DNA of 64,000 nt, from NCBI GenBank assembly GCA_000004985.1, contig GG738845.1. One strand, given 5' to 3'. This document shows positions 1,951 to 61,811 of the stretch, in pieces (the first letter of the stretch is position 1; every line of letters begins with the position of its first letter). Origin of the DNA: Naegleria gruberi (taxonomy: Eukaryota). The notes beneath the pieces are model-generated. The model ran no database searches, was not told the DNA's origin, and was given only the letters and a program-made list of their open reading frames with translations. The translations under genes and the position numbers were made by a program.

Positions 1951-4676
1951 ATGGAAGGATTTGACAATTTTGTTCAACGTTTAAAGGGTAACGCCTATGA
2001 TATGGGTGCTGAAGAGGAAAAGTATAGAAAAAAGGAAGAGGAAAGAAAAAAGAGAAAGGAAACAGCCTTTGCAAAATTCGGACTTTCTCAACTCTTATTA
2101 AAACAAATTAAAAGATGTGGATTTTTCAATCCAACACCAATTCAGCAAAGTTCGATACCTGTTATTACACAAGGAAGAGATGTGATTGCTATGGCTAGAA
2201 CTGGTTCAGGTAAAACTGTTTCTTACCTTTTCCCTCTTTTTGAGAGATTGGATTATAAACACTCTTCAATTGTTGGAGCTAGAGCTGTCATTATTGTCCC
2301 AACTAGAGAACTTGTATTGCAAGTGAATAAGGTTATTTATGATTTTATTGGTAAAACATCTGATTTGAAAACATGTATGCTTTTTGGTGGTAAATCAATG
2401 GAAGGTCAATTTGAAAGATTGAGTGCCAATCCAGATATGTAAGTAGATGATGAAATTCTATATGTTTTTTATTCATTTCTTTCAGAATTATTGCAACACC
2501 TGGTCGTTTGTTGCACATTATTTTAGAAACTGGTTTGAGTTTAAAGAGAGTGGAATATGTAGTTTTCGATGAAGCTGATCGTTTATTCGAAATGGGTCTT
2601 TCAGAACAATTATATCAAATTATTGCCAAATTACCAACAACTAGACAAACACTTTTATTCTCTGCAACACTTCCATCAGCTGTAGCTGAATTTTCTAAAG
2701 CAGGATTGACTTCACCTGAATTGATTAGATTGGATTCAGAAGTTAAAGTGAGTGATAATATTAGATTGAGTGGACTTTTTGTTAGATCGAATGAAAAAGT
2801 TGCTGCCCTTCTTTACTTGTTAAATAGTGTAATTTCTCATCGTGAGACAACTATAATTTTCATTCCAACTAGACACCACGCCGAATATTTCCTTACATTA
2901 TTTACTCATTACAAGATTGAAGCAACAGTTGTTTATGGTAGTATGGATCAACAAGCTCGTATGGAAAATCTTGACAAGTTCAGAAATGGAGAAGCTAATA
3001 TTTTACTTGTAACAGATGTTGCTGCTCGTGGTATCGATATTCCTGATGTGAACAATGTCATTAATTACAATTTCCCAGGTAAACCAAAGTTATTCGTCCA
3101 CAGAGTTGGTCGTGTTGGTCGTGCTGGTAAAGTTGGTACTGCATACTCACTGATAGCTCCTGATGAAGTTCCATTTTTCCTTGATCTTGAATTATTCTTG
3201 GGAAGAAAATCAAGAAATGTTGTTATGGAAACAATTTATGAGGATGAAGATTCTAGGCAAGTTCCTGCTGATTTATCTGGTAGAAATTGGAGAGAATTTA
3301 TTGATGGATATATTGGAATTATTCCTCAATCAATTCTTGATAGAGAAATTGAACACTTGGCACATTTGGAAAGGATTGATGGTGGCCTTTTGAATGAAAA
3401 GGAAGTTTGTGATAGAGCTTTAACACTTTATAATAGAACTAGAGGTGATCCAAGTGGTGCTTCTATTGGAAGATCTAAGGAATTGCACACTCTTGCTATT
3501 CACCCAATGATTAAGGTTTTAGAGGTCATAACAGATGAAGAAGAGGAACAACATGATATTATTGCACAAATGAAGGATTACAGACCTGGTCAAACAATCT
3601 TTGAATTTAAAGAAAAGGAAAAGAGTGCTGAAGCTGAAATTATGAAAAAGAGAAGACAATATTTGAAACAAGCTCAAGTTTTGAAACAAGTAAGAGATTA
3701 TTCCATTCAATCAGGAGTTGAAAGTGATGAAGAAAATGATGCAAATGCCACCAAGGAAAAACCAAAACCAAAGTCACTTGCTGAAAGACTCTTAAGTGAA
3801 GATTCTAAACAAGACAGATTTTCCAAACTGACGAATGTTGTAGCTCCAAAGAAGAAGAAGGAATTTAAGGATCCAAACTTTTTCATGGAATATACAAAGG
3901 AAGATCAAGTTCAAGATCCATCAGAGGATCACTATGCTCTTAACGGTGCCTCCTCAAAGAAGAAACAATTGACAAGTGTCGTCTCAAGTGAATTTAATGA
4001 AATTCCACAACAAAGTATCAGCGATGCAGTTATGGATATTGGAGGTGAAACTAGAGAAGAATTGAATAATCAAAGAAAGAAGCAAGGTATGATTTGGGAT
4101 AGAAAGAAGGGTAAATATGTTGTTGGTACAATGGGTATTGATGGTAAGGTCAGAAGAGATGATAATAAGAAGAAGGATACTCTCAAGACAACTGATGCCT
4201 ATGCCAAGTGGAAGAGAAAAACTCACGGTAGAATTCAAGGTGTTGGTGAATTGGAAGAAAAACAAGACTTTGTCAAAGCTAGAAGTCAAGACGATGATGA
4301 AAATGGTGGTTTTGGATTTGAATCATACAGAGATGAAGGAGAAGAAATTACACTTACCAATAACAAGAAGAGGAAAAAGGCTCCTTGGGAAGAAAAAGAC
4401 GAGCAAAAATCTTCCAAGAAACGTAAGAGTGCAATTAAGGAAGGTAAGGGTGGTAAAGATGAAGTCAAGACAGAAGCTCAATTGGCCAAGATTAGAAATG
4501 ATAAGAAGAAACAACAACAACACAACAAGGTCAAGTTCATGATGAAGAAACATGGTGCTGCTTCCGTTTTAGGTTCACTTCAAAGAAAGGGTATGATGAA
4601 AGCTTTGGAAAACAGAAGTGCACTTCCAAACAAAAACTCAAAAGGTCAAGTTCGTCTTTTCAGAAAACGAAAATAA
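1951..4676 (+). CDS. DEAD-box ATP-dependent RNA helicase, DDX54/Dbp10-like. Two exons, about 1951..2438 and 2486..4676
   Basis: Exon 1 carries the Q motif (FNPTPIQ), motif I (ARTGSGKT) and PTRELV. Intron: GTAAGT donor at about 2439 and TTTCAG acceptor ending about 2485 (47 nt, phase 2). Splicing recreates motif Ib as ...SANPDIIIATPGRLLH. Exon 2 has DEAD (VVFDEAD), SAT, HRETTIIF, ARGID and HRVGRVGR motifs, followed by a long basic C-terminal extension typical of Dbp10/DDX54. Confidence 0.85.
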
Positions 4677-6867: not shown

Positions 6868-8796
6868 ATGTTCATCAAAAAAGGACCAACAACAGTCACT
6901 AGCAATGGTGGTACTAGTAAAACCGAAAATAACAAGAAGAATTCCTCTGGTTCTACCACTCCAAAAAAGAAGATTGAAAAGATTACACCACAAAAAGAAG
7001 AAATTGTTCCTGATGAAGATATGATGATTTCGGATGATGAAAATGTTGCTTCTGAAGAAACAACAAAACAGAAACAACAACCAAGTCATCACAAGAAAGT
7101 TAATGATAGTTTGACAAGTATTCTCTTTGGTGGATATAAATCAGCAGCAAAGGATCTTTCAATTAATTTATTTAATTCATCAGATGAGCTCAATCTTCAA
7201 AAGATAATGACTGATGATGAATTAATATTTGGTGAAACAAAAGCTAAGGTTTCTACCTTCAATGAATTGAAATCTGACATTGAGCAACAAGATGATTCTG
7301 ATTTATTCTATGTTGAAAAGCCTTCTATTCATCAAAATGATGAAATGTTGGATGAAGGTGAAGTTTCTAAAAAGAAGATGAAGCTTATTAAATTAAAACC
7401 TGCTTGGGAAGATGTTTATACAAAGGAATTACGTATTGCCAATGATGATGACGAAGAAGAAATTGAGGAAATTGACCAAGATGGAATTACTCAAAGTCTT
7501 GTTCAAGGATTTTTAAAGAGAAAGAGAGATGGACAAAATTCTTCAATTTTATTAGGTTCAGAATATGAAAAGAAGATGAGAAAGATTTATACACACTTAT
7601 TCCCAACTCCTCACTGGGCAAAACTCAAAGTTAAACAATATGAAAATGAAAATCAAGATGGAACTGTATCAATTAGAGAAGAAATCATTGATGAAAATAA
7701 TTTGAATCAAACTGCAGACGAAATTTTACAAAAATCCTCAGAAAAGACCATTGTAGAATCATTGAATAATCTTGATAGGTTTAAACTTGCCTATCAAAAG
7801 CTTAATGATATCAATGGACAAGAACGTGTTGGACAAGTTTTCAGCATTGCATTCCATCCAAATCTTAATATTGCTGCCGTTTTGAACTCTGATAAGAAGA
7901 TTAGAATTTTCACTGTTGATGGTGAACTCAACCCAATTTTGGACAGACTGCAAATAACCAACCAAGGTGATAATGACTTGAAGAGTATTGCCTTCACAAA
8001 GGATGGTAAATCAATTATTTCATTCTTGGATAAATCAGCCTACTTCCTCATGACAGATATGGACAGTGGTAAAACAAGAAGAACTCAAAAGCTATTCTCA
8101 CGAAGGAGACGTGGTGATGAGAAGGAAGGTGGTAAATTCCTCTTACACAATGCCTTTGATGTTTCAAATGATAACAAACTTATAGCAGTCGCTGATGATA
8201 TTGGTAGTGTCTTGCTCATTTCTCGAAAGACTCTCAATATCAAACATACATTCACATCCAACATGACACAAGTTTCTGGTGTTACATTCAGTGAAGATTC
8301 CAAGACTTTGTTTGTTGTGGGTAAGGGTGGTAAGGTATATGTCTATGATGTAGAAAGTGAAAAGATCAAACATATTTTCGCTGATCATGGTTCCATTCAT
8401 ACTCATTCTGTTGCTGTTTCTCCTGATATGCAATATATTGCCACCGGATCAACATCTGGTGCTGTGAATCTCTATCGTTGGGCAGATGTTTTCAATGGAC
8501 AAGCTCCAAAACCTCTTGGAACATTTATGAATTTGACAACCACTGCCAATTATTTAAGGTTTACCTCTGATTCTCAATTGTTGCTTTTTGCTTCCACTGA
8601 AAAATCGAATGCATTCCGTTTTGCTCACATTTCCTCCCTCTATGTCTATTCCAATTTCCCTGGTGAAATTAGTATGAAGAAACAATATTCTTTCAATTCA
8701 ATAACTTTGAGTTCATCATCGAGTTTCCTCTCATTGGGTTGTCAAAGTGGACCAGTCATTCTTTTCAAACTTCCATACTATGCTAATAAACAATAA
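6868..8796 (+). CDS. WD40-repeat nucleolar protein, UTP18/WDR50-like (SSU processome)
   Basis: 642-aa ORF. It has an acidic N-terminal region with a KPAWEDV...DDDEEEIEE motif, followed by WD repeats (FHPNLNIAAV...IRIFTVDGELN; FTKDGKSII; FSEDSKTLFVVGKGGKVYVYDV; ATGSTSGAVNLYRW). Confidence 0.5.
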   Translation: MFIKKGPTTVTSNGGTSKTENNKKNSSGSTTPKKKIEKITPQKEEIVPDEDMMISDDENVASEETTKQKQQPSHHKKVNDSLTSILFGGYKSAAKDLSINLFNSSDELNLQKIMTDDELIFGETKAKVSTFNELKSDIEQQDDSDLFYVEKPSIHQNDEMLDEGEVSKKKMKLIKLKPAWEDVYTKELRIANDDDEEEIEEIDQDGITQSLVQGFLKRKRDGQNSSILLGSEYEKKMRKIYTHLFPTPHWAKLKVKQYENENQDGTVSIREEIIDENNLNQTADEILQKSSEKTIVESLNNLDRFKLAYQKLNDINGQERVGQVFSIAFHPNLNIAAVLNSDKKIRIFTVDGELNPILDRLQITNQGDNDLKSIAFTKDGKSIISFLDKSAYFLMTDMDSGKTRRTQKLFSRRRRGDEKEGGKFLLHNAFDVSNDNKLIAVADDIGSVLLISRKTLNIKHTFTSNMTQVSGVTFSEDSKTLFVVGKGGKVYVYDVESEKIKHIFADHGSIHTHSVAVSPDMQYIATGSTSGAVNLYRWADVFNGQAPKPLGTFMNLTTTANYLRFTSDSQLLLFASTEKSNAFRFAHISSLYVYSNFPGEISMKKQYSFNSITLSSSSSFLSLGCQSGPVILFKLPYYANKQ

Positions 8797-9739: not shown

Positions 9740-11137
9740 ATGAGGAAGCGAAATGTTTTTGTGGATCAGGATTTAATGATGCTTTCCAATACAATGGAAT
9801 TTAGACCACTTGTTATTGACCAAGGAACAGGAATGACAAAGGTTGGATTTGCAGGTGATGATATGCCACTATTGTTGCTGCCAACGGTAATGGCACCTGA
9901 TGAGCTTCATTCCGATCCTCATCACAGCAAGTTTGTAGGCCAAAAGGGATCTCAAGCAACCTCAACAACCAATAATCCAGATGCTAAAAAAGGAGGGCAA
10001 GAAAAAACGCCAGAAGTCAATGTCGCCACAAGTGAGGAGGATGTAAACTACTTGATTGGTGACGATGCTATTGGAGTGGATCGTTCATCTGGAGCCATAT
10101 CTAGATCAGCAAAATATTTTTCTTACAACTCTAACAATTTCAAGAATTTCAATGAAAAAAGGGACATGAGAATGTTGAGCAGTCTTCATTTTCCAATGGA
10201 GAGAGGTGTTGTGGATGATTGGGATATGATGGAAAGAATTTATGAGTCTATTTATGTGAATCAGAAAATTAATACAGCCCCAGAAAACCAACCTCTACTC
10301 ATTTCAGAAGCTTGTGAAAACCCAAAAGAAAATAGATACCACATGGCCGAAATACTCTTTGAAAAATATAAGGTTCCATCAATATATATTGCATCTCAAC
10401 CAGTACTTTCGCTCTACTCAACTGGTAAATCAAGTGGACTTGTTGTGGAGATTGGACATGGAGTTTCTCAAACAGTGCCAATCTTTGAAGGATTCCCACT
10501 CTACCACGCTATTGTCAAATCAGAATTTGGTGGTCTTGACATTACCAACTATTTGAGACAATTGCTCGAGAAGAATAAGCGATATGAAGAGCTGATCAAT
10601 TACAATACTATTGCTGGATATAAGATTTTAACAGAAATGAAAGAAAAACTATGTTACATTTCACAAAACATTGCCGAGGAGCAGTACAACGTAGGCCTCT
10701 CTGAATATGTTCTTCCAGATAGAAAGGTTATTCAAATAACTCATGAAGCTTACAAATGCCCTGAAGCTCTCTTTTACCCAAAACTGGCTGGAAAAACAAA
10801 CATGTTTGGTGTTCATGAGGCTCTTTTCCATGTCTATGACAAATCGGATGATTACATCAAACAAATACTGATGGACAATATAGTTCTGGCTGGAGGTTCA
10901 ACTATGTTTACTGGATTTAAGGAACGCTTAATTGCTGAATTCTCAAGAATACTCACCGAAAAGACAGGAAGCTCAAGAATTACCGATAAGAATGTCCGAG
11001 CAGAAAATGACAGAGTTTTTGGATCATGGATTGGTGGCTCAATACTTGCCTCTCTACCAACGGTTCAAAACTTGTGGATAACAAGACAGGAATATGACGA
11101 GCATCATGATGCTATTTTCAGTAGATGTTATGGTTAA
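9740..11137 (+). CDS. Actin-related protein, Arp family, with a roughly 100-aa insertion
   Basis: Actin fold signatures are present (LVIDQGTGMTKVGFAGDD; GLVVEIGHGVSQTVPIFEGF; DITNYL; VLAGGSTMFTGFKERL; WIGGSILASL). The start is uncertain: ATG at about 9740, or at about 9794 (MEFRPLVID). Confidence 0.75.
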   Translation: MRKRNVFVDQDLMMLSNTMEFRPLVIDQGTGMTKVGFAGDDMPLLLLPTVMAPDELHSDPHHSKFVGQKGSQATSTTNNPDAKKGGQEKTPEVNVATSEEDVNYLIGDDAIGVDRSSGAISRSAKYFSYNSNNFKNFNEKRDMRMLSSLHFPMERGVVDDWDMMERIYESIYVNQKINTAPENQPLLISEACENPKENRYHMAEILFEKYKVPSIYIASQPVLSLYSTGKSSGLVVEIGHGVSQTVPIFEGFPLYHAIVKSEFGGLDITNYLRQLLEKNKRYEELINYNTIAGYKILTEMKEKLCYISQNIAEEQYNVGLSEYVLPDRKVIQITHEAYKCPEALFYPKLAGKTNMFGVHEALFHVYDKSDDYIKQILMDNIVLAGGSTMFTGFKERLIAEFSRILTEKTGSSRITDKNVRAENDRVFGSWIGGSILASLPTVQNLWITRQEYDEHHDAIFSRCYG

Positions 11138-17546: not shown

Positions 17547-17627
17547 TTTTTTTTAATTGATTTTCATCCTTGAACTTAATTGTTGCTATTGGAATTAAAG
17601 CCAAGACTTGTCTTTGAAGAAAAAAAA

Positions 17628-18656
17628 ATGCTCAACAATAGGTTTGATCAAAACCAACCACTCAAACATCGTTCCGTTACAAGTTTGGCGGGAAATTCTT
17701 CCATGCTGCCAACAATACCATCATCGTCAACAACAACAGGAGGATTCTCTATGAATAAGTCTAAATTATTGCCAGTTTCACTGACACATCAAACAAGTAC
17801 TTCTTATTCTGATCAAACTTTTGGAAAGGAAGAAAGAATCAATGAACGATTATTGTCATCATCATTATATAGAAAAAGCGATTTAATTCCGAGCGAGCAA
17901 AATAATATTATTGATACAGAAGTACCACCAGCAGAAAGTATTTTGGATGATGGCGAACCAACAAGATTGACAAAAAGTCTTGCTGCTCATTCTTCTTTTA
18001 TTTTCGGTGGCAAGCCTAGAGATGAAGGAATAATTACAGATTTTATGATGACACCACTATCAATCAAAAACTTGGACAGGAAGAGAAATTTCTCAACACC
18101 AGGTACATTGGAACAATCTGTACTAAAGAGAGGAGTCTTTACATCACCATTGCGAACTGATCCATTCTTTGAAGTTGATGATGACAAGCTTAAAAGTAAT
18201 ATTAATGATATTGTAAAGGAAACAACTTGGGTGACAGTATTTGGATTCCCTCCAAGTAAGGCCTCTTACATTCTCAGACAATTTTCAAATTATGGAATGA
18301 TTATTAATCACAAGATTATGAATGGAAACTTTATGCATATTCAATACAAAGCCAGAATTCAAGCTGATAAAGCTCTAAGCAAAAATGGAAAAGTCTTCGA
18401 TGGAGTTTTAATGGTGGGTGTAGTAGAATGTTTAGATACTGAAATTTTGAGACAATACGAGAAGGAAAAGCGATTGGTTGAAGAAAAATCAAGCAAAAAA
18501 AGAAATATCTCGTCTATATCCAATGATGATGATATTCAATTTAATGGTGGAATCTCATATCGTCATAAATTGGAACTACCACTAGAAAAGAAGAGAAAGC
18601 CAGAGTCTTCGAATTCTTTCTTTTCCAAACTTTTTGATTACGTTTTTAAATTCTAA
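17628..18656 (+). CDS. Nucleoporin Nup35/Nup53 family
   Basis: The C-terminal half contains the RRM-like MPPN domain, near-collinear with metazoan NUP35 (WVTVFGFPPSKASYILRQFSNYGMIINHKIMNGNFMHIQYKARIQADKALSKNGKVFDGVLMVGVVEC). The likely start is the ATG of MLNNRFDQ. Confidence 0.75.
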   Translation: MLNNRFDQNQPLKHRSVTSLAGNSSMLPTIPSSSTTTGGFSMNKSKLLPVSLTHQTSTSYSDQTFGKEERINERLLSSSLYRKSDLIPSEQNNIIDTEVPPAESILDDGEPTRLTKSLAAHSSFIFGGKPRDEGIITDFMMTPLSIKNLDRKRNFSTPGTLEQSVLKRGVFTSPLRTDPFFEVDDDKLKSNINDIVKETTWVTVFGFPPSKASYILRQFSNYGMIINHKIMNGNFMHIQYKARIQADKALSKNGKVFDGVLMVGVVECLDTEILRQYEKEKRLVEEKSSKKRNISSISNDDDIQFNGGISYRHKLELPLEKKRKPESSNSFFSKLFDYVFKF

Positions 18657-18665
18657 TACAATTCT

Positions 18666-21600
18666 TTATTGTTGTGGTATTGTCTTTAAACTTTCCATTG
18701 TTGTTTCAATAATACTCTTCTTGGTTACAAGGTCTTTAACGCTAGAGGATTTTCTTTGCTTGGCCAATTCTAATTCTTCTCTCTTTGAGGAAACAATCTT
18801 CTTTGATTGATCAAATCTATTTCTAGCCTTTTCTAAATTTTGTTTGATTTCCTTTTCTCTTTTTGTTGCTCTTTCAAGGGAGTTTTTGGCTGCTATTACT
18901 TTCTTGTCTTCAACTACAACAGAATTGTTTGAAACAATAGCATTGGATTGAATAGATTGCTTTGGAGTCTTTTGTAAGTTCAAATCCTTTTGGTTGGCAA
19001 CATCGGCTGGTGTTTCTTGCTTTGCTGAATTTCCCTTTGTCAAGAATTCCAAAAACTTTTCTCTTATTTGGTTCTTTTTCTTGTCCATTTCTTCTCTCAT
19101 GAGCTTTTCTCTGAGAATATATTCCATTCTTCTTCTTTCCTCTTCCATAAAGAATGGTTGCATTGGAGAGCTAAGAACTGGAGAACCAACAACAAGTTGG
19201 GCACCAACAATACCAGAATTTTTTCTACACTTGGATTGCTTCTTTTGGTGTTTCTTGTGTGGTTTCTTCTTTTGAGACTTGGAAATGCTCTTGATAAGCT
19301 TTCTGAGCTTGCAATATGTGCATTTCTTCTTACCTCTCTTTACCTTCTTTGGCTTTTTGTGATGCTTCTTATCTTTCTTAGAACCAGTTGTAATTCTTGT
19401 TTCAATGTTAACAACTCCAATATTACCAGAAACGTTAGTGCTTGTTTGGATTGCAGCTTGTCCTGGTTGAGGATTTGGTTGCACAGGTGGTTGCACAGTT
19501 GGTTGTGCTGGTTGTGCTGTTGGAGGGGTTGATTGTTCCTTATTAACAACATTAGAGTTTGCATTGGCGATTTGTTCAACAATTTTTCTGTACCATTCCT
19601 CTCCACACAATGGATTAAGAGATTCATCTTCAGGTGTAGAACATGAGCTTCTTGGTACACCAATTTCTCCCATAATTGAATCCAATCTCTCAAGATCGCT
19701 TTCTTCAGCCAACATTGGATCTGCACTTACAATAGCTTCAGCCAATTCTCCATATTCAGCGGAAGTTAATGGTTCAACTTCCTTTCCTTCTTTAGCGTCA
19801 GTGAATTCAGTACAGTATGGATTGGCAAGAAGTTCTTCCAAAGTAGAGCACTTTGTTACCTTTGCCACACTATCAGATTTAATTTGGACTGGCTTAACTG
19901 GATCGACTGATTTAGTGTCCTTATTGACTTGCTTTTTGTCCTTCTTAGTATCTGACTTCTTTCCCTTGTTAGCCTTCTTATCAGATTTGGTGTCTTTCTT
20001 GAGATCTTTCTTGTTATCTGATTTCTTTCCCTTATTGTCGGATTTTTTATCCTTCTTATCAGACTTGGTGTCTTTCTTGAGATCCTTCTTGATTGGTTTG
20101 ACTGATTGAGAATTATTAGCATTGGTACCCTTGTTGTCTTTAGACTTTTTATCATTATTGGTTTGCTTGTTAATTGGTTTGATTGGCTTGTTTTCCTTCT
20201 TGTTAACATTCTTATCAGATTTGGTGTCCTTCTTGAGATCCTTCTTGTTAACTGATTTCTTTCCCTTATTGTCGGATTTTTTATCCTTCTTATCAGATTT
20301 GGTGTCTTTCTTGATGTCTGATTTCTTTCCCTTATTGTCAGATTTGGTGTCTTTCTTGGTATCTGATTTCTTTCCCTTGTTGTCCTTGTTGTCCTTGTTG
20401 TCAGATTTGGTATCCTTCTTATCTGATTTGTTGTCCTTCTTGATATCCTTATTGGTTTGCTTATTAATTGGTTTGACGTTCTTGTTATCCTTCTTGTTAA
20501 CCTTCTTATCGGATTTGGTGTCTTTCTTGAGATCCTTCTTGTTATCTGACTTCTTTCCCTTAATGTCTGTATTGTCAGATCTTTTTGGCTGTCTTTCTTG
20601 GTATCTGATTTCTTTCCCTTGTTGTCAGATTTGGAACCCTTCTTATCAGATTTGTTGTCCTTCTTGATATCCTTATTGGTTTGCTTATTAATTGGTTTGA
20701 CGTTCTTGTTATCCTTCTTGTTGTCCTTCTTATCAGATTTGGTACCCTTCTTGAGGTCGTTCTTCTTGTGTGATTTCTTGGTATCCTTCTTAGCAGACTT
20801 GGTCTTATCCTTCTTAGTATCTGACTTCTTTCCCTTGTTAGCCTTCTTATCATATTTGGTGTCTTTCTTGAGATCCTTCTTGTTTTCTGATTTCTTTCCC
20901 CTATTGTCGGATTTGTTATCCTTCTTATCAGATTTGGTATCTGATTTCTTTTCCTTGTTGTCAGACTTTTCTTTCTTTGATTCAGTTTTCTTTTCTTCTG
21001 ACTTCTTTGGTTGTTCTGTCTTTGATTCAGTCTTCTCATCTCCAGTATTTGGGACTGCAGTTTGGATGTCTGTCTTTGGAGTAATATTGTCTTCAGATTT
21101 CTTGCCAATAGCTTGCTTATTTGAGGTTTGAGTCTGGGTAACAATTTCAATACCATTAGCATTTTGAGCACTTGAACTAGACATCATTGTTTTTTCAACA
21201 CCATTGTCAACCTTTGCAGATTGTTTCTTGGATTCATTTGAAACATTAGAGATTGCTGGTTTAATATCAGTCTTGGAATCAGCTGTAGAAGCCTTGCTGT
21301 CATTTGCAGTGGATGATGGCTTGACTTCAGTCTTGGTGTCACTCTTGGAAGGGATATCCATCTTTCTATACCATTGTTCTTTGCACAAAGGATGAGTGTA
21401 ATAACTATCCAAAGATCCACATACATGATCTCTTCCAGAGCTGAGCTTTGAATTAATGGCATACTTTTGTTGTTCGTTTGGACCATAGCTGAGAGATTTG
21501 ACATTCAAAACATTGCAATCACCATCTACATTGAGCTTGCACTTCAAAACATTACCAGAACTAATTGGCTTTTGATTTGGAAGTTCAACTGCAGTTTTCT

Positions 21601-22270
21601 TATCAGATGGAGTAACAACTGCAACGCCAGCCTTCTTTTCAACTTCCTTTGTTGTAATAGTGTTGGCACTATCAGTCTTTGGTTGTTCCTTTCCAGTATT
21701 TGAGTCAAGAATCGTTTTTTTATCAGTAGACTGAGTATTCATTGTTGGAACAGAATTAGTACCGGTAACAACAACTGGAGCGGTTTGAGTTGGAGTGGTT
21801 GTTTGACTGCTTGGAGTAGTTGTTGGTGTTTGAGTAGAGGTTGTTGTGGAGGCAGTACTACCTTGTGTTGTACTGGTTGGAGTGGTCGCAAGAGGAGTGT
21901 TGGTTGTTGAGGGAGTTGTAGTAGTGGTTGGCTTACTAGTCTCTCCTTGTTCCAAAACAACTCTTCTGTATTGCATCTTTCTGTACCATCTCTCCTTACA
22001 CAATGGGTTAGAGTAATAGCCAGAAACTGTGCTACACTTGATGGACTTGCTGCCTGTTGAAGAACGATATTTTGGTATTTCCTTGGGATCATAGGAAAGG
22101 GCCAACTCATCAAGATAAGACACAACACTACAGTCACCATTTCTATTGAGAGTGCAACCTAGGGCCTTATCGCTGCTTCCTTGAGCGAGAGTTTGGGTCA
22201 TTAAAAAGATGACCAAAACAACAAGGGTTGTTAGTTGGGCAAGCTTGCTTTTTAACAACTTTGATTGCAT
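18666..22270 (-). CDS. Secreted, mucin-like, lysine-rich tandem-repeat protein with a repeated 4-Cys module. Probably one gene spanning ORFs 19856..22270 and 18666..19868, interrupted by a frame change at about 20580
   Basis: N-terminal signal peptide (MQSKLLKSKLAQLTTLVVLVIFLMTQTLAQG). Two copies of a roughly 65-aa Cys module ending in YYxxPLCKExWYRKM, a Thr-rich linker, and a second Thr/Ser stretch. The next roughly 1.1 kb is KSDNKGKKSDTKKD-type repeats. The K-rich frame is minus frame 2 above about 20582 and minus frame 0 below it. I checked that frame 0 is open with no stops from 20624 down to the stop at 18666. Downstream come a third PLCGEEWYRK motif, a Q/P-rich and basic stretch, and a coiled-coil tail. 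The frame change coincides with a variant repeat carrying +5 nt (gtcagatCTTTTTGGCTgtctttc instead of gtcagatTTGGTgtctttc). Confidence 0.55.
19880..21000 (-). repeat. Coding tandem repeat array of imperfect 42-45 nt units encoding K/S/D/N/T-rich peptide repeats
   Basis: Visible periodicity on the plus strand (cttcttatcagatttggtgtctttcttga...gatttctttcccttattgtc...). The same DNA yields long spurious ORFs on the opposite strand and in shifted frames (LSDLVSFLRSFL... and RRISRKTPN... translations). Confidence 0.8.
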
Positions 22271-40518: not shown

Positions 40519-41565
40519 TTACAATTCAACAAGCAATACCTCCAGTGCTGATATCTCCTCGGCTGACAACATTGGATTGTCCTTAATCCAAGTACTAATT
40601 TTCTTAATGTATTCCTGTTTCTTCTCTGTCTGTTGAGTTGTGTTTTGTTTGATATGGACAGAATTAGTAATGGAGAAAAAGTGGTTGGCCTCTTGAAAAC
40701 TGTTAAAGTGGGAAGGAGAGGATTGTGGAATAATTGTTTCTGCTAAATACTTGAGCATTTTCAACTCCATGTCTGTTGCATTGAGTACTAGTTCATTAAA
40801 TTGTGCTACAACTTGATATCCTTCATATAGAGGTGGTAAAATCTTCCATTGAGAGCAGAAAATTGTTTCAAGTGTTGTTTTATGAGAATTCATCAGGTAG
40901 ATCCTGTATGGAGAGGTCTTGACATATGGCCATATTTCAACCATCATTTCTGTAAAGCGTTCAAAGAAACGAGATTTTCTTTCAAGAGGAATTGAAGTTC
41001 TTCCATTATAATATGCCAATGAATCCAGAATATAAATTAAGGCTCGGTTCATTATAAATTTGTGCCATCTCGCTTCTACATTAACTCTTTTCTCCATCAA
41101 CAAACTGACAAATTCCTTCAAATAAATACAAGTATTTTCCAAATCTCTATATTTCATTCCATACAATTTCACTTGAGCTTGTAAAAAGGATAACCTCATT
41201 AAATCACAATTTCTCAAATATTTTTCAATCAACACTTTCAATATCTCCTCCTCATTAAAAAGATTTTCACATGTAGTATCCAATAATTTGAGGTTCAAAT
41301 CTTTAAAAAACTCAATACTCGCTCTAGGATAATAAATAGTAACATGTCTTGGCAGTTTCCTCCGATGACGAAGAAACAATCTTTTTCTCCTCGAGTTTGG
41401 AGGTTCCATTCTTATCTGTCTCTCCAACTCTTCATTATTGGACAACATTCTCTCACGAACAATAAAAAACCAAGATTTAAAACAATATCCAATCCTCACA
41501 ACATCTCTCTCCTGCATAAATGAGGCAACATTCTCTAACATTTCAATCGGTAATTGATCAAGCAT
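40519..41565 (-). CDS. F-box domain protein
   Basis: N-terminal F-box consensus (LPIEMLENVASFMQERDVVRIGYCFKSW). The rest is helical with no other recognised domain. Confidence 0.5.
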   Translation of the reverse strand: MLDQLPIEMLENVASFMQERDVVRIGYCFKSWFFIVRERMLSNNEELERQIRMEPPNSRRKRLFLRHRRKLPRHVTIYYPRASIEFFKDLNLKLLDTTCENLFNEEEILKVLIEKYLRNCDLMRLSFLQAQVKLYGMKYRDLENTCIYLKEFVSLLMEKRVNVEARWHKFIMNRALIYILDSLAYYNGRTSIPLERKSRFFERFTEMMVEIWPYVKTSPYRIYLMNSHKTTLETIFCSQWKILPPLYEGYQVVAQFNELVLNATDMELKMLKYLAETIIPQSSPSHFNSFQEANHFFSITNSVHIKQNTTQQTEKKQEYIKKISTWIKDNPMLSAEEISALEVLLVEL

Positions 41566-41719
41566 TGTTTCTGTATTTTTTTATTTTAATTAAATTTAAA
41601 AAAAATTGTCTAACGTTAATTGGGTACCCACCATTCCGTTATCAAATTTGTGATCATCACACTATTACGACTCGTACGAGTAGACATTTTAGCAACTCTG
41701 TAAATAATTTATTGTTCCA

Positions 41720-44668: not shown

Positions 44669-45004
44669 TTTGATATAAAATCCAATGTTGTTTTTTTATG
44701 GATAATAGATAGGATGATGATATTGAGTGTTTGATTGAATGCCGAATGTTGGCCTGTATTGTAGCAGTGTGTGTCAGCCTGTAAAAATAATAATATTTTT
44801 TTCTTTCAAATTTTTCAACACAACGTTTGTCTCGCAGCTGAACTCTTTAACAAAAGCATTTACCAGTCCTTTTATGATCTCATTTCTCCAAAAAGTGGCG
44901 GGTAGATAGTAATTGCATAACGTTTATCTTGGTCTTGTTTGAGTCGCCCTCAATTCTTACCAAAAGATGTTGGTGATTGCTTTTCAACAATAATTTATTG
45001 ATCA

Positions 45005-50534: not shown

Positions 50535-50598
50535 CCTTGTCTAAGTTTTTCATTAATCAATTTTTTTTTAAATGAAAAATTGTAGTGTTGGCGGTGGA

Positions 50599-50611
50599 TT
50601 TTGGCGCCAAA
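50599..50611. promoter_or_regulatory. E2F-like palindrome TTTTGGCGCCAAA
   Basis: Located in the 130-bp spacer between two minus-strand genes, about 65 bp upstream of the ATG of the MGNFVS gene. Confidence 0.45.
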
Positions 50612-50663
50612 GTTTTGAAAGATTTACTCAAGTTCTGAATAACATCATTTTATTGCTCTAATC

Positions 50664-52307: not shown

Positions 52308-52461
52308 TTTTTTTAATATTAAATTGATTTTTATTTTCTTTATTATTTGAACCTGAATGTTGTTAGTGGCATCATTAAAACCACATTGGACCAACATAAT
52401 ATCAATAATTAAGCAATGTTAAAATCTCCCGCCGAGATGTATCGTAGTTAACATCAAAAAA

Positions 52462-55630: not shown

Positions 55631-55891
55631 GATGATGATGATAATATTATATTGTCGAGTAGAGTGGTGTTGTTGGATACGGTCAAATTAAGGCAATTTT
55701 TCGCAGTAGATTCTTGAAAACTCCTGTGTTATATTTGATTGAAAGGGTGATTGTTCAATCTCTATCATGATACCTATTGAAGTTAGTTTTTATTGACAAA
55801 CAAAAACAAATAAAAAGAAATCTCTCTTTGCATCAATGAAGAGAGGGTTTAAAGTTGATTACTTTCCACTAATAAAAACTTGGTGGCAAAG

Positions 55892-55904
55892 TTTGGCGCC
55901 AAAA
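55892..55904. promoter_or_regulatory. E2F-like palindrome TTTGGCGCCAAAA in the CDC27/APC3 promoter
   Basis: 28 bp upstream of the CDC27 ATG (55932). Flanked by TTGGTGGCAAAG. Confidence 0.5.
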
Positions 55905-55931
55905 TTTTATTGATTTTTAAAATTAAAAAAA

Positions 55932-58367
55932 ATGGAAACATTCATCAGGCATTTTGTTCATCAATCCTTGTCCTTCCATCTTCATGAAAATGCAATTTTT
56001 CTATGTGAAAGATTGTTTGCGGAAAGCCCATCAATCCCTCACCTGTTATTGATGGCCCAAACATATTTTGAGTCGGGACAATATAGTGTTGCTTATCACT
56101 TGCTAAAATTTCATTCTTCAAAATGGGATGTTCCCTTTAGAACCAACACTTTATCATCGGATCCAGAATTGTCAAAAAGTTTCTTTGATTTTATGGATCC
56201 ACAAGAAAGTATCTTTTATTTATTTTCTTTATGTTGTATTAAATTGGAACACTACAGTGATGCTGAAAGATATTTGAGGAAATGTCACGAACATAATGAA
56301 AATAACGCTATTATTAATTATTGGCTTGGAATAGTCTACAAGTTGACTTGTAGAAAAGAGTTGGCAATTTATCACTTCCATAGAAGTGTCACTCTTTGTC
56401 CAATGTTATGGACTGCCTACGAACAACTAACCCAACTAGGATATGACAAAGTAGAATCGGATGGATTGTTTGATTCCAACAAGGCCACTTCACTTTTTGA
56501 AAGATTTTCTCAAATGTATTCTAATTTAACTGGAAACCAACCAAATAGTCTTACCAATATTCCTTTGATGCCCAATTTTAATTTTACTCCAATGCAAAAC
56601 ACAGGCACTGAATTTAATTCTAATCCACTTATTGATCGTGACACAATTATGGATCAGCCATTTATTCAACTTTCAAATGATCATGCAGGAATTTCATCTA
56701 CCCCAAGCAAATCAAAGTAAGTTTCGAATTTTATTTAATTGTAAGAATATTATGATTTTAGATCAGGAAATGACTTGATAAGCTCCAATATAATCAATAC
56801 ATCCACTGCTAAAACACCAAACATCTCATCAACTAAAAGCAAAACTAGAACTAGTATAGGAAGTGCTTCAAGAAGTAGTTTAGGAAATGATCTACTCAAT
56901 AGCACTTCAACACAACAAACTCCAAATTCATTCTTCTATAGAACTCCTTCTCCTCAACAGTCTCCTTCCTCAATTATTAATCACCCACCAGTGTTAGCTC
57001 AAAAACCAAAACCTCCAAGAAAGAGCCAAACCATCACTGGAGTCACAACAAAGAAAATATCATTCGACTCTGCCGATAAAAAGCTAGGAAGATCAAGTAT
57101 TACAAGCTCGAGTAGCGAGTCAGAAGAATCTCCATTCCTTCTCTATCCAACCCAAACATCTCATTCCTTCTCTAAAAATTACAGAGCATCTCCACAAAGA
57201 CCATACCAAAGAGATTCTCTGCCTAATCAACCAGAATTAATTTTGAGTGCAACAACACCTCTTCCATCAATTCCTTTGGATCCAAGTTCTGTATCATTCC
57301 CTTCCTTCAGCACATGGCAGTCAACATTTTCATTTAATTATAAGAAAGTTACTGTAAATGATGTAAGGGCAATACTCTCCCTCCTTTATGCACATGCCAT
57401 ACCATACAAATTCTTTTCCCAATACAAAGGAAAGGAAGCCATAGAGGCTTTCGAAAGACTTCCTCCAAAACATTATCAAAGTGGGTGGACGTTACAACAT
57501 GTGGGAAGATCTCATTTCGAGATGGCTCAATATGAAGATGCAGAAACTGCATTCGAAAAGATACAAATGAATGAGCCATACAGATTGGAAGGATTGGAAA
57601 TATACAGCACCATATTGTGGCACTTGAAAAAAGATAAGAAGCTCAGTTATCTTGCTCAACATATGAGTGAAATTGATAAAATGGCACCACAAACATTGTG
57701 TGCCATCGGTAACTGTTTCAGTCAACAAAAGGACCATGAGACAGCCTTAAAATTCTTCGAACGAGCTACAAAAGTTAATAATCTTTTCACCTATGCCTAT
57801 ACATTAGCTGGCCATGAAAGAGCTGCAAATGATGATTTGGATGGTGCATTACAATGCTATAGACATGCAATTAGAATAGATGACAGACATTATAATGCAT
57901 GGTATGGTATTGGCACAGTTTACTTTAGACAGGAAAAGTATCAATTGGCTATGTATCATTTCTCCAAAGCCATCAGTATTAATTCTAAGAGTTCAGTACT
58001 CTATTGTTATGCGGGTATGGCAGAAGCTGCCTGTAATCACTTTGAGTCAGCAATTAAAATGTTCACTTGTGCCATCAAGATTCATCCACAAAACCCAATG
58101 CCCAAATTTAAGAAAGCTAATGCCCTCATATCACTCCAAAAGTATAACGAAGCACTGGAAGAATTGAAAGAACTGAAGCATATGGTTCCAAAAGAATCTC
58201 AAATTTACTTTACATGTGGTAAAATTTATGCCTCCAGAAAGCAGAAAGACCTGGCTTTGTATGAGTTTAATATTGCTCTCGATTTAGATGGCTCTAAAGA
58301 AAATCCTCTCATTAAAGAAGCTATTGCAAAGCTCTATGAGATGGATGATGAAAAACTTGAAGAATAA
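55932..58367 (+). CDS. CDC27: Anaphase-promoting complex subunit CDC27/APC3. Two exons, about 55932..56718 and 56763..58367
   Basis: N-terminal TPR region. A 44-nt intron (GTAAGT...GATTTTAG, phase 2) joins ...PSKSK to SGNDLISSNIINTS. The C-terminal 330 aa are near-collinear with metazoan CDC27 TPRs (YNAWYGIGTVYFRQEKYQLAMYHFSKAISINSKSSVLYCYAGMAE...NPMPKFKKANALISLQKYNEALEELKELKHMVPKESQIYFTCGKIYA...LALYEFNIALDLD). A TTTGGCGCCAAAA palindrome lies at 55892..55904, 28 bp upstream of the ATG. Confidence 0.85.
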
Positions 58368-58390: not shown

Positions 58391-61300
58391 CTAATGCACT
58401 TCTTCTGCTGTTTCATCTGAAAATCCTAGTAATTTTTCTGCAAACTCAACTGAGGTAAATCGCTCTTCCAAAGAAGCAACCGTCACAGTGTCTTTGAGTA
58501 ATTTACAGAGGCAATCATTGAGTTCATTTTCACTCATTCTTTCGCCCATCGTTTTAAGTTTTTGGAACAAATCAGTTTTGTTGATGAAACCAGTGATTGG
58601 TTCACTGCCTAGCTTGATAAATGCTTCCTCAATATCCTTTCTCTGAATTCCAAATACTGGTCTGTGATTTACATAAATTTTCACAAATGCATTGAAATCG
58701 ATGAAAATTTCGGGTTCCTTCTTTGATTTTTTCTCAAGGTTGGAAGAACTGTTCTCAGCTGGGTCCCCAACACCCTTAATGACTCTCAATTCATAAATCA
58801 TATTTTGAATTTCCCATTGGGTTGCATAAAATCCTAAAGAACGAACTAGATCTGGCATTTGATTAATTGGTACACTGCCTGTGATTTTTCTTTCACTGGT
58901 AGTAATCTCGCCTTGACTTCTAATCTGGGCATAGTAGAAATATTGTTGAACCTCTTGGAAAAATTCACCTTCTTCTCCTCCTTCAATCAAACTCACATAT
59001 GGTGCAATACCCTCATCAACTTGCCTGTTTCTATCGAGTGGCGTACCAATAATCTTCCATTGGTTGACCATACAATCCGATCCTCCAGCAGTGAACAAGT
59101 ATTTACCATCTGGAGACACAACTGAGGCTGTGATTTCTCCAGCATGAGCAACCAACCCCATATGATGCTTTGGATTGCCATCTAAAGGTAATGCAATTAA
59201 TCCAATTACTTTTTCATGTGTAGAGTAGCACATGTATTTTGGTGGTCGAAGTTCTGGCAACAAGGAAGAGGATTCCTTAACATAATTTGGAACTATCATT
59301 AGTCTATTGAGAGGTCCTCCATATGTTGGGCTGAGAATTGTTCTATTACACCTGGTGTCTCTGTGGCCATAAGGTGTTATGAAGGAAGTTATCTTGTATT
59401 GGTCATTGGCAAATAGAATACCATCGAAATACTTCTTCTCATTTGGATAAGTTTCAATTACGTTTTCATCTCTTGACCATAAAAATGCTGTTGGAACTGC
59501 ATCTTGACTGATTCTGTGGATTGTTTTGACTTTAATGCCTCCTTGAATTGAGCTGCTTTCTAAATCGTACTCAATCAGTCTTCTGTCTTCTGACACCGAC
59601 ATTAATCTAGGAATGTCACCATATGGTTCAATTCCAAACTCCAATCCTGTAATTGCTCTCTTATGAGATTTATATCTACCCAAATACATCCATTCATCCT
59701 TTCCCATACCTTTCTTTTGTGGATTTGGCATGAACTTGAAAATACCAACACAGCTGATTGTTTGATTATCAAAGAATATTGTTAGATAAATGACTTACTA
59801 ATCAGTATCATAAAATGCTAAAAACAAGGAATCGTGAGAAAATTTTAGGGATTGGATACATGCTTTGGATGGTCTATAACCAAAATGAACTATTTCAGTA
59901 AAAAGTACTGCATCGAAAAATTTTACATAACCATTCGAACATCCAACAGCCAAATATTCACCTCTATTGTCAAATGCCAAACTTGAAATATATAATCCTT
60001 TTAGAACCAGAACTTTAAGAACCTCCTTCAGTTGATAATCCCAAATGTGTACATAGCCTGAAAGGCCAGATATTGCAATGTATGGTTTTGTTGGATGCAC
60101 AGCTAATGTTTGAATTGATTCATTTTGACTAGTAACAATAATTCGACCCTTCATACCATCAACATCATAATCGTGAAAGGAAGATGATTTAGCCTTTGCA
60201 ATAAAACCAGACTTGGTTTGAATCATAAAGTCTGGACTGTAGAAATCCCTCTTGATAGGACCATCCGTTGATTCAATAGTGCTCTTTTCCTTTGTTGCTT
60301 TATCAAACGAAATGGAAATGATAGATCCAAGATTAAAGTCCTCAAACCATGCCTCTAATCGCAGTTTGTGATCTAAAAATTTAACAAATCCATCACTGCC
60401 TCCACTTACAATGAAAGGTCCAGAACATGTAATGTAGTTAACACTGTACCCTGTATGAATTCTATCGATCCTTAATAAGAAAATGTTATTAATTACTTAC
60501 TTGACCACTTTCATTGCTTCCTTTTCAATTTCCTTTGCTTCTCTGTCTGGGAAAATCTTCCTCTCCCAAAGAACAATTTCACCATCAGAAGTTCCTGAGG
60601 CTGCCATAGTTGTATTATCTACAAAAGTTGTTTGAATAAATTCACTTGATGCCTGCCTAAAGTCGCTTTTTGCTGTGCTAGGACAAAAATATTCTAAGGA
60701 ATTGTTGTCTTCATGATTTTCCCAAAACACAACAGATTTTGGACCGCTAGTCAAAAAAATTGTTGGATTGGCAAAATGGCAAGTTAGAGAAGTCTGAAGC
60801 TCATTATTAGGGACCAAGGAGGAAACTTTGGCACCTTCTAAATCTTCAGTCCATTCCCAAACTGAAACCTGTTGCTCCCCTTCCTCATTAGGTCTACTAA
60901 CGCTGTAAATTAACATAGAGTCGCAAGAAATGTCCACTGACTCAATTCCAACCGGATGAGGGTCAAAAATTGTTTTGACTGGAATACCCTTATAACTATC
61001 CCAAATGACAATCATATTTTCCTTTCCACTATCTGCAGTTACAATCCATTTCTTGTCCCTACTGACTGCACAGCATGTTATCATGTTTGTCTATTTTTAA
61101 TTGAATAATAATTTTACATTCATTTTCAATCAATTCGTATTCCTTACAAAAACTTACATGACCTTGAAGTAATATTTGTTCCTTTGACTCGTATCTGAAA
61201 ATTATTCCAACATTTCCTGCAACATAAAATACCTCCTTTCTGTAATCGTCACATAAATTGTGCATGCCTCCCAAAATGTCCTTATTCATTCCAAAAATCC

Positions 61301-61771
61301 ATTTCAAATCGAGAGTGGAATCCTCATCTACATTCTCTGATTGATCATAAAAGCTATCCTCTCCTTCATTGTCCTCATTATTTCTTCGAATATCTCGATT
61401 ATCATATTCATCTCCAGCATCTGAATGTTCATCCATCTCAACCTTTGATTCATCATTTTCATTTACTTCGTGTTCCTGAACGTGGTGATGTAGATTTTCT
61501 TCATCATTTTCCTCACCGTCATTTTCTGGATCTTCCTCTTCATGAACCTCCTGATTATCCTCCTCTTCTCCATATTGTTGATTTTCTTCATCATCAGCCT
61601 CTTCTCCTTCTTGGTTCTCATCTTCCTCAATCAAAGGAGTTCCATGATCCCTATTTTCATTCTCATTTTCCTCTGTCATTTCCTCCTCTGCGGAATTGTC
61701 CACCATCAAAGTTTCTTCTGGATCTTCGTTGGCTGAAATATGTGTATCCTCATCTGTTGTTGGTTCCATTT
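58391..61771 (-). CDS. WD40-repeat ciliary protein, CFAP251/WDR66-like. Four exons, about 61771..61158, 61090..60498, 60467..59801 and 59755..58391
   Basis: Glu/Asp-rich N-terminus. Multiple WD repeats lie across ORFs 61059.., 60497.., 59798.. and 58391... Introns are 67 nt (GTAAGT...AAAATAG, phase 0), 30 nt (GTAAGTAATTAATAACATTTTCTTATTAAG, phase 2) and 45 nt (GTAAGTCATT...AATCAG, phase 2). The C-terminus is EF-hand-like (FIKLGSEPITGFINKTDLFQKL). Total is about 1080 aa, similar to WDR66. A TTTTGGCGCCACAA element sits about 30 bp upstream of the ATG. Confidence 0.5.
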
Positions 61772-61796
61772 TTTTTAAATTGTAGTCTACAACCAA

Positions 61797-61811
61797 CTTT
61801 TGGCGCCACAA
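61797..61811. promoter_or_regulatory. E2F-like element TTTTGGCGCCACAA upstream of the CFAP251-like gene
   Basis: About 30 bp upstream of the minus-strand ATG at about 61771. Half-palindromic. Confidence 0.4.

Follow-up and report, generated by a model that had tools for sequence, protein, structure and literature searches.

The window (the whole 64-kb stretch of Naegleria gruberi DNA analysed here) is about 85% open reading frame (ORF). The remaining 15% is non-coding and the AT-richest part, and it holds every copy of the hexamer GGCGCC. The genes next to these copies, and next to those of the related hexamer GGCGGG, are listed with their coordinates in Table 1. They comprise genes of division (APC3, Nup35 and a probable GCP4), the axonemal gene CFAP251, an ARM-repeat gene, a HEAT INTOLERANT 4 (HIT4)-like gene and genes of uncharacterised role.

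Table 1. Promoter sites and adjoining genes in the window.
Feature	Position	Strand	Context
TTTGGCGCCAAA	112-123	palindrome	14 nt upstream of minus-strand ATG 97 (probable GCP4); 357 nt upstream of the HIT4-like ATG
AAAGGCGCCAAA	413-424	+	56 nt upstream of ATG 481, HIT4-like gene
TTTGGCGGGAAA	17684-17695	+	canonical non-palindromic E2F-type site; between the amine-oxidase/phytoene-desaturase-like gene and Nup35
Nup35 gene	17580-18656		
GGCGGG core, context GTGGCGGGTA	44897-44902	+	~240 nt upstream of minus-strand 411-aa GNAT-like gene
ARM-repeat gene, multi-exon, ~1,390 aa	46338-50534	-	first exon is the MGNFVS ORF
TTTGGCGCCAAA	50600-50611	palindrome	65 nt upstream of minus-strand ATG 50534 (MGNFVS...)
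CCCGCC core, context TCTCCCGCCGAG	52428-52433	+	64-nt divergent promoter: RRM gene (ATG 52397, -) / 518-aa coiled-coil gene (ATG 52462, +)
TTTGGCGCCAAA	55892-55903	palindrome	28 nt upstream of CDC27/APC3 ATG 55932; 261 nt from divergent PH-domain gene (ATG 55630, -)
CDC27/APC3 gene	55932-58367	+	two ORFs, 55932-56720 and 56775-58367; Pfam ANAPC3 + TPR
CFAP251 (WDR66) gene, axonemal protein	58391-61769	-	phmmer against PDB CFAP251 chains, E 1.6e-95
TTTGGCGCCACA	61799-61810	-	reads TGTGGCGCCAAA in CFAP251 sense; 29 nt upstream of minus-strand ATG 61769
GGCGCC cores	115-120, 416-421, 50603-50608, 55895-55900, 61802-61807		

On the minus strand, an ORF extending beyond the left end of the window starts MLHEILLALSGFSGDII, and its first 20 residues align to the first 20 of solved GCP4 chains (E ~0.5). 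This match is statistically weak and position-specific, and we regard the gene with its ATG at 97 as a probable GCP4. The product of 481-1686, previously described only as K/E-rich, is a homologue of plant HIT4 and is identical to an N. gruberi predicted protein except for one gene-model gap. The site upstream of Nup35 stands 7 nt before the ATG at 17703, and would be part of the ORF with 17628 as the start; it is 137 nt from the ATG at 17546 of the amine-oxidase/phytoene-desaturase-like gene on the minus strand.

The preliminary description had placed one palindrome upstream of a gene beginning MGNFVS. The position was right, but this minus-strand ORF is only the first exon of the ARM-repeat gene: tblastn of N. 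lovaniensis ORFs against the window gave gapless homology from 50534 to 46371, and the gene models are 1381 aa long in N. fowleri and 1390 aa in N. lovaniensis. Among solved structures, the ARM part is closest to ODAD2/ARMC4 (PDB, E 1.5e-16), a partial match of ~165 residues. Pfam and PDB searches gave no matches for the MGNFVS exon or for the 518-aa coiled-coil protein. The identifications of CDC27 and CFAP251 both held. The CDC27/APC3 protein has 79% identity to N. fowleri FDP41_007193, is related to APC3 across eukaryotes and contains the Pfam domains given in Table 1, and the CFAP251 orthologue of N. fowleri (1073 aa) is at the syntenic position.

GGCGCC occurs five times in the window, where 0.40 copies are expected, and none of 100 dinucleotide-preserving shuffles reached five. 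All five copies are intergenic and upstream of an ATG, as had been reported. The chance expectation given before (one to two copies) was too high, so that the excess is larger than claimed. The distances to a start had been given as 28-370 bp; the nearest ATG is 14, 56, 65, 28 and 29 nt away, in the order of the cores in Table 1. Two copies had been assigned to the gene at 481. This is correct for the one at 413-424, but the nearest ATG to the one at 112-123 is that of the probable GCP4.

The full palindromic 12-mer TTTGGCGCCAAA is present three times, and the two imperfect copies are AAAGGCGCCAAA and TTTGGCGCCACA. Oriented by the nearest gene, the five copies all share GGCGCCAAA, and whenever a copy deviates it is the 5′ half that is imperfect. 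A degenerate second copy, TTGGCGGTGGA, lies ~13 nt to the left of the palindrome at 50600-50611. When the five copies were aligned with 40 nt of flank, the only features in common were GGCGCCAAA (9 nt) and the A-run that precedes each ATG, and they are therefore not copies of a dispersed repeat. An origin from a repeat or MITE was rejected on the same ground. A role at the RNA level was also rejected, as a perfect palindrome of 12 nt cannot fold into a looped hairpin.

An unbiased ranking of every 6-mer by over-representation over the 9.4 kb of intergenic DNA of the window (30% GC) put three words at the top: GCGCCA (9 against 0.33 expected), GGCGCC (5 against 0.07, P 1e-8) and CGCCAA (10 against 1.0). 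The strict E2F consensus TTTSSCGC gave nine strand matches at six loci, against 1.16 expected. G/C-only hexamers number 18 in all in the window, and the only ones that are always non-coding are GGCGCC (five copies) and CCCGCC/GGCGGG (three copies). These last three, at 17684-17695, 44897-44902 and 52428-52433, had been missed in the preliminary description. Together, the GGCGCC and GGCGGG sites are intergenic in 8 of 8 cases, and every one contains the core SGCGS. For seven of the eight, the distance to an ATG is 7-65 nt, which probably puts the sites at the transcription start or close to it; the remaining one, at 44897-44902, is ~240 nt away and is the weakest of the eight. Roughly a quarter of the promoter regions in the window, which contains ~26 intergenic regions, bear a site, a high fraction for a narrow regulon. 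GCCGCC, which resembles a GCC box, was rejected as a member of the family since its four copies in the window are all coding, and ACTACAAT was rejected as a second element because it shows no overall enrichment (3 copies, 2.9 expected). Thus the motif is genuine: it is strongly enriched, and it is found in promoters only.

For comparison with other species we used the HIT4-like regions of N. fowleri and N. lovaniensis, the regions of both species that are syntenic with 46-64 kb of the window, and the HIT4-like locus of W. magna. Over a 179-kb set consisting of the window and six loci from Naegleria and Willaertia (16% intergenic; ~115 kb from other species), whose syntenic loci were picked for being motif-bearing regions, GGCGCC/GGCGGG was found 17 times in intergenic DNA and never in genic DNA (binomial P 4e-14). 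TTTSSCGC was found 11 times in intergenic DNA and once in genic DNA.

The syntenic block of N. fowleri has no GGCGCC and four copies of GGCGGG (0.99 expected). Each of the four is intergenic, and each falls in a different one of the promoter regions that have a site in N. gruberi: those of the ARM/MGNFVS gene (at -75), the coiled-coil gene (-40), CDC27 (-160) and CFAP251 (-33). At CFAP251 the N. fowleri sequence is ATGGCGGGTT, at the same distance as the N. gruberi site. The counterpart of the site at 52428-52433 is at the same position in both species, as CCCGCC in N. fowleri and GCCGCC in N. lovaniensis. N. lovaniensis retains sites at three of the four orthologous promoters; its ARM/MGNFVS promoter has the canonical TTTTGGCGCG together with ATGGCGCC, its CDC27 promoter has CCCGCC, and its CFAP251 promoter has AGCGGG only. 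The ARM/MGNFVS promoters of the three species can be aligned on AAAGTTT, and the N. lovaniensis site is displaced by a few nucleotides. Judged from the alignment, this displacement is turnover with compensation, as would be expected of a functional site.

Sites are thus present while their sequence switches within GGCG[CG][CG], which is the degeneracy of E2F, and the palindrome is therefore not obligatory. Its description as ‘unusually rigid’ does not fit these data, as GGCGGG variants exist in the window itself and the orthologous promoters of N. fowleri have GGCGGG where N. gruberi has GGCGCC. Several N. fowleri sites match in the core SGCGS only: the T/A flanks are missing in GGCGGGTTTT and TTACCCGCCTAGG, and GGCGGGGAAA has one G too many. 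The suggestion that the element is conserved stands for the orthologous promoters of N. fowleri and N. lovaniensis, but not for the HIT4-like promoter: neither GGCGCC nor TTTSSCGC was found upstream of this gene in N. fowleri, N. lovaniensis or W. magna. The GCP4-like N-terminus was not found in the HIT4-like loci of these three species either, and the left neighbour there is a different one. At the CDC27 locus of Acrasis kona, whose genome has 41% GC and many background matches, TTTTGGCGCCAC is found 780 nt upstream and is separated from the gene by an unannotated ORF. Overall, the comparison shows that other Naegleria species retain sites at the same promoters, where the substitutions are of a kind that E2F tolerates.

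An E2F-type site is also found upstream of RPA1, one of the classic targets of E2F, in five heterolobosean genomes. The sites of N. fowleri and N. lovaniensis were seen first: the sole GGCGCC in the HIT4-like locus of each species is upstream of RPA1, as TTTTGGCGCCAAG in N. fowleri and TTTGGGCGCCAAAA in N. lovaniensis. These were then used as a prediction for three more genomes. In W. magna, the single TTTSSCGC of the 13-kb locus (0.10 expected) is 64 nt before the RPA1 ATG. In a metagenomic heterolobosean TTTSSCGC occurs twice (0.06 expected), each time within the 358 nt upstream of RPA1, and in a Naegleria-like assembly CCCGCCAAAAA is found at -77.

What reads this element? The E2F family consensus is GCGSSAAA, with the GCGC core read by an RRXYD helix (Medina et al. 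2016). As the preliminary description had proposed, the sites fit this consensus, and over its full 12 nt TTTGGCGCCAAA equals the human E2F1 HT-SELEX/JASPAR consensus. The sequences of the N. gruberi E2F, DP, DEL (E2F7/8-like) and RB proteins are given in the supplement of Medina et al. (2016), so the organism does have the E2F and DP homologues whose absence would have spoken against the proposal. In a Pfam scan of NgruE2F, NgruDP and NgruDEL from that source, the E2F_TDP domain scored 99, 69 and 107 bits, respectively. The E2F_CC-MB and DP domains were matched as well, and NgruDEL has two E2F_TDP stretches. The C-terminal end of NgruE2F, EGVSDLFL, resembles what we take to be the Rb-binding tail of animal E2Fs.

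We consider it likely that the GGCGCC palindromes and the GGCGGG sites are E2F-family binding sites in compact promoters. The candidate readers are the single E2F, DP and E2F7/8-like DEL of N. gruberi, which would be partnered by an Rb pocket protein. TTTGGCGCCAAA can be read as a pair of GCGSSAAA half-sites that overlap in inverted orientation; its central GCGC would then be contacted by the RRXYD recognition helices of E2F and DP, with the T and A runs flanking it. E2F/DP (or DEL) would occupy the sites and, through Rb, may couple the genes that bear them to cell-cycle entry. Where a promoter is divergent, one site may serve both genes.

Known E2F systems agree with this reading in several ways. 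Animal and plant E2F/DP sites include a palindromic optimum, that of human E2F1, identical to the Naegleria 12-mer; they have the same core degeneracy (GGCGCC or GGCGGG), are promoter-proximal and are found at RPA1 and mitotic genes, and the cognate E2F, DP, DEL and Rb proteins, with the RRXYD motif, are present in N. gruberi too. The differences are that the host is a heterolobosean amoeboflagellate, distant from both animals and plants, that the sites come as close as 7-14 nt to the ATG, and that the targets include an axonemal gene. In addition, with three perfect 12-mers in 64 kb, the fit to the optimum is much closer than that of typical metazoan sites. In Dictyostelium, the Rb orthologue RblA jointly represses S-phase and mitotic genes, including those for gamma-tubulin, spindle and APC-related proteins. 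Because this repression acts on both classes as one wave, a mixed S/M target set in Naegleria is unsurprising. The two cases would be alike in that a single Rb/E2F axis in an amoeba controls S-phase and mitotic genes, which matches the set of RPA1, CDC27 and the probable GCP4. They differ in that the Dictyostelium network was defined by expression in a mutant, with a consensus E2F element mentioned in passing, whereas the Naegleria case consists of a cis-element and its conservation.

A related possibility is that the main reader is not E2F/DP but the atypical, DP-independent NgruDEL, with its two tandem DNA-binding domains, or a DREAM-type Rb repressor complex, so that the element chiefly silences genes outside a narrow time window. 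The two E2F_TDP stretches of NgruDEL are in keeping with this, and the two equal half-sites of the palindrome would suit a protein with two equivalent domains; the Dictyostelium Rb orthologue is likewise a repressor of S and M genes. From sequence, however, E2F/DP and DEL are indistinguishable because both bind GCGSSAAA-type sites. The DREAM complex of animals (E2F4-DP-p130-MuvB) acts on G2/M genes through CDE/CHR elements, to which the Naegleria promoters are similar in having a GGCG element upstream of mitotic genes and, after two of the five GGCGCC copies, a CHR-like TTTGAA exactly 5 nt beyond the core. We rejected a CDE/CHR element all the same, as the spacer is 5 nt and not the canonical 4 nt, both of the TTTGAA copies are on the far side of the core as seen from the nearest ATG, and the orthologous promoters are without it. 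Moreover, a CDE is a weak site, whereas the full palindrome with T/A flanks is by its sequence a high-affinity E2F-type site. We therefore regard silencing by DEL or a DREAM-type complex as unlikely.

The element might instead belong to the differentiation of amoeba to flagellate, or to a microtubule-organelle programme, rather than to the cell cycle, in which case its readers could be E2F-family proteins or others. CFAP251 is genuinely axonemal and its site is at an equal distance in N. gruberi and N. fowleri, the closest solved relatives of the ARM-repeat protein are ODAD2/ARMC4, and the probable GCP4 would act in microtubule nucleation. Naegleria is without RFX, FOXJ1 and XAP5 (2025 review), and certain axonemal genes are up both in mitotic synchrony and in differentiation (Kennard et al. 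preprint). Against this, RPA1, CDC27 and Nup35 are non-flagellar, the ODAD2 match is partial (the ~165 residues of ARM repeats), the CFAP251 site of N. lovaniensis is degenerate, and only two genes in the sample are possibly flagellar, all of which makes such a role decidedly unlikely. A different and possibly lineage-specific protein could also read GGCGCC/GGCGGG, with the likeness to E2F a coincidence of a short GC-rich word. The link of the sites to E2F does rest on sequence, and E2F-type flanks are missing at several N. fowleri sites. The SMAD1/5 GC element and abutting NFI half-sites (TTGGC/GCCAA), which are metazoan and unrelated, have GGCGCC as their core too. To our knowledge, however, the MH1-domain factors (SMAD, NFI) are confined to animals, and the geometry of an NFI site is not found here, the half-site spacing being 0 nt and not 5 nt. 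The equality with the E2F1 optimum extends beyond the hexamer to the full 12-mer, the two bases after GGCG, CC in one species and GG in another, differ exactly as the S-S positions of the E2F consensus allow, and strict TTTSSCGC recurs at RPA1 in three further genomes. We thus find an unrelated reader very improbable. That the sites are due to chance, to composition or to remnants of dispersed repeats is scarcely credible: the sole point in favour is that the core is short, and against it stand the shuffles and the intergenic enrichment of GGCGCC, the restriction of all copies to the non-coding and AT-richest 15% of the window, the lack of any likeness longer than 9 nt between copies, and the conservation of site positions across species.

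Within the preferred reading, that of E2F-family sites, the association with flagellar genes is a lead and not a result. In vertebrate multiciliated cells, E2F4/5-MCIDAS/GEMC1 control centriole amplification and cilia genes (2025 review). The similarity is that E2F sites are tied to centriole or cilium genes, which in Naegleria are CFAP251, possibly the ODAD2-like gene, and the probable GCP4. The axonemal genes sampled in Naegleria differ in amounting to one confirmed and one possible case. Geminin-family cofactors are, as far as we know, an animal feature. Naegleria builds microtubules for mitosis and for the flagellar apparatus only. One E2F/DP/DEL set could conceivably drive a shared ‘microtubule organelle’ programme of mitotic (APC3, GCP4), replication (RPA1) and axonemal or basal-body (CFAP251, ODAD2-like ARM) genes, a reading of the gene set that we think rather improbable. 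If it were true, the link between E2F and centriole/cilium genes would be ancient, and vertebrate E2F4/5-MCIDAS would be a descendant of it or a parallel.

The E2F family, its specificity and its antiquity are already well known; what is new is such an element in Naegleria. In the literature searched we found no description of an E2F site, or of any promoter motif, in Naegleria, and the preprint of Kennard et al., which reports RNA-seq of synchrony and differentiation, has no discussion of promoters or motifs. Almost nothing is known of the promoters and transcription factors of Naegleria and the Heterolobosea, and the element is a concrete cis-regulatory candidate. A site of 12 nt at less than 70 nt from the ATG can be mutated in reporters, and its definition allows the regulon to be predicted across N. 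gruberi, N. fowleri and N. lovaniensis. The CFAP251 site, conserved in N. fowleri, is one candidate answer to the question raised in the 2025 review of how cilia genes are regulated without RFX, FOXJ1 and XAP5. More broadly, the findings support control by E2F/DP/Rb, with an unchanged DNA specificity, back to the last eukaryotic common ancestor.

Between 46 and 64 kb of the window, four promoter regions in a row carry the site, the E2F-type motif with a GGCGCC or GGCGGG core (see table). The same four consecutive promoter regions each contain a site in N. fowleri. In the remaining 46 kb of the window there are 4 sites in about 20 promoter regions. Genes bearing the motif may therefore be clustered.

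Features recorded around the sites and elsewhere in the window, with loci of other Naegleria species where indicated
Feature	Position	Remarks
Run of site-bearing promoter regions	46-64 kb	ARM/MGNFVS; RRM/coiled-coil; PH/CDC27; CFAP251/Rab5-like
GGCGCC + 5 nt + TTTGAA	115-131; 50603-50619	GGCGCCAAACCTTTGAA; GGCGCCAAAGTTTTGAA
Degenerate second copies	50587-50597; 55879-55890	TTGGCGGTGGA; TTGGTGGCAAAG
Word ACTACAAT or its counterpart	50579-50586; 61779-61786; L005 (syntenic with 46-64 kb) about 4335-4345	
Perfect 12-bp palindrome ACTCGTACGAGT	41670-41681	divergent promoter
Conserved block TGGGGAAAAYTGCGGGYAAAYTCCG	L001 (N. fowleri) about 9760-9800; L004 (N. lovaniensis) about 8590-8630	
Tandem repeats, periods 21, 45 and 78 nt	19966-20754	within ORF 19856-22270, minus strand
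Lysine-rich ORF, 96 aa	28484-28772	surrounding stretch otherwise ORF-free
A-run before ATG, examples	473-480; 55924-55931; 61770-61777	

Some sites are accompanied by further short elements. Two of the perfect palindromes in the window each have a degenerate second copy, 12-13 nt to the left, which suggests a paired arrangement here. TTTGAA follows GGCGCC after exactly 5 nt in two of the five copies in the window, reminiscent of the CHR that accompanies E2F-type CDE elements in animal G2/M genes; it is absent at that spacing from the remaining three copies and from the orthologous promoters. Between site and ATG, the promoters of ARM/MGNFVS (an ARM-repeat gene) and the axonemal gene CFAP251 both contain ACTACAAT, with the counterparts CACTACAACAATT in N. 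fowleri and GCTACAAAATT in N. lovaniensis. This word, which is not enriched over the whole window (3 vs 2.9), may be a start-site element.

The palindrome ACTCGTACGAGT, located between the ATGs at 41565 (minus strand, F-box-like gene) and 41720 (566-aa gene), occurs once in the window, with 0.10 copies expected for its 10-mer core, and could be the site of another factor. To the left of the HIT4-like gene, before the next gene, N. fowleri and N. lovaniensis share the conserved block TGGGGAAAAYTGCGGGYAAAYTCCG, which may be promoter or coding sequence and includes an E2F-like GCGGG-N-AAA.

The tandem repeats encode a K/T/S/D-rich repetitive stretch of an 804-aa secreted-looking protein, and the region shows an extreme AT skew (-0.42) and numerous overlapping ORFs on both strands. 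The 96-aa ORF, shorter than the ORF-length cut-offs used in the analysis, contains both GC-rich hexamers of the otherwise ORF-free stretch.

Most genes in the window have 6-10 A residues directly 5' of the ATG, and in the N. gruberi genome this A-run appears to provide a strong context for translation initiation.
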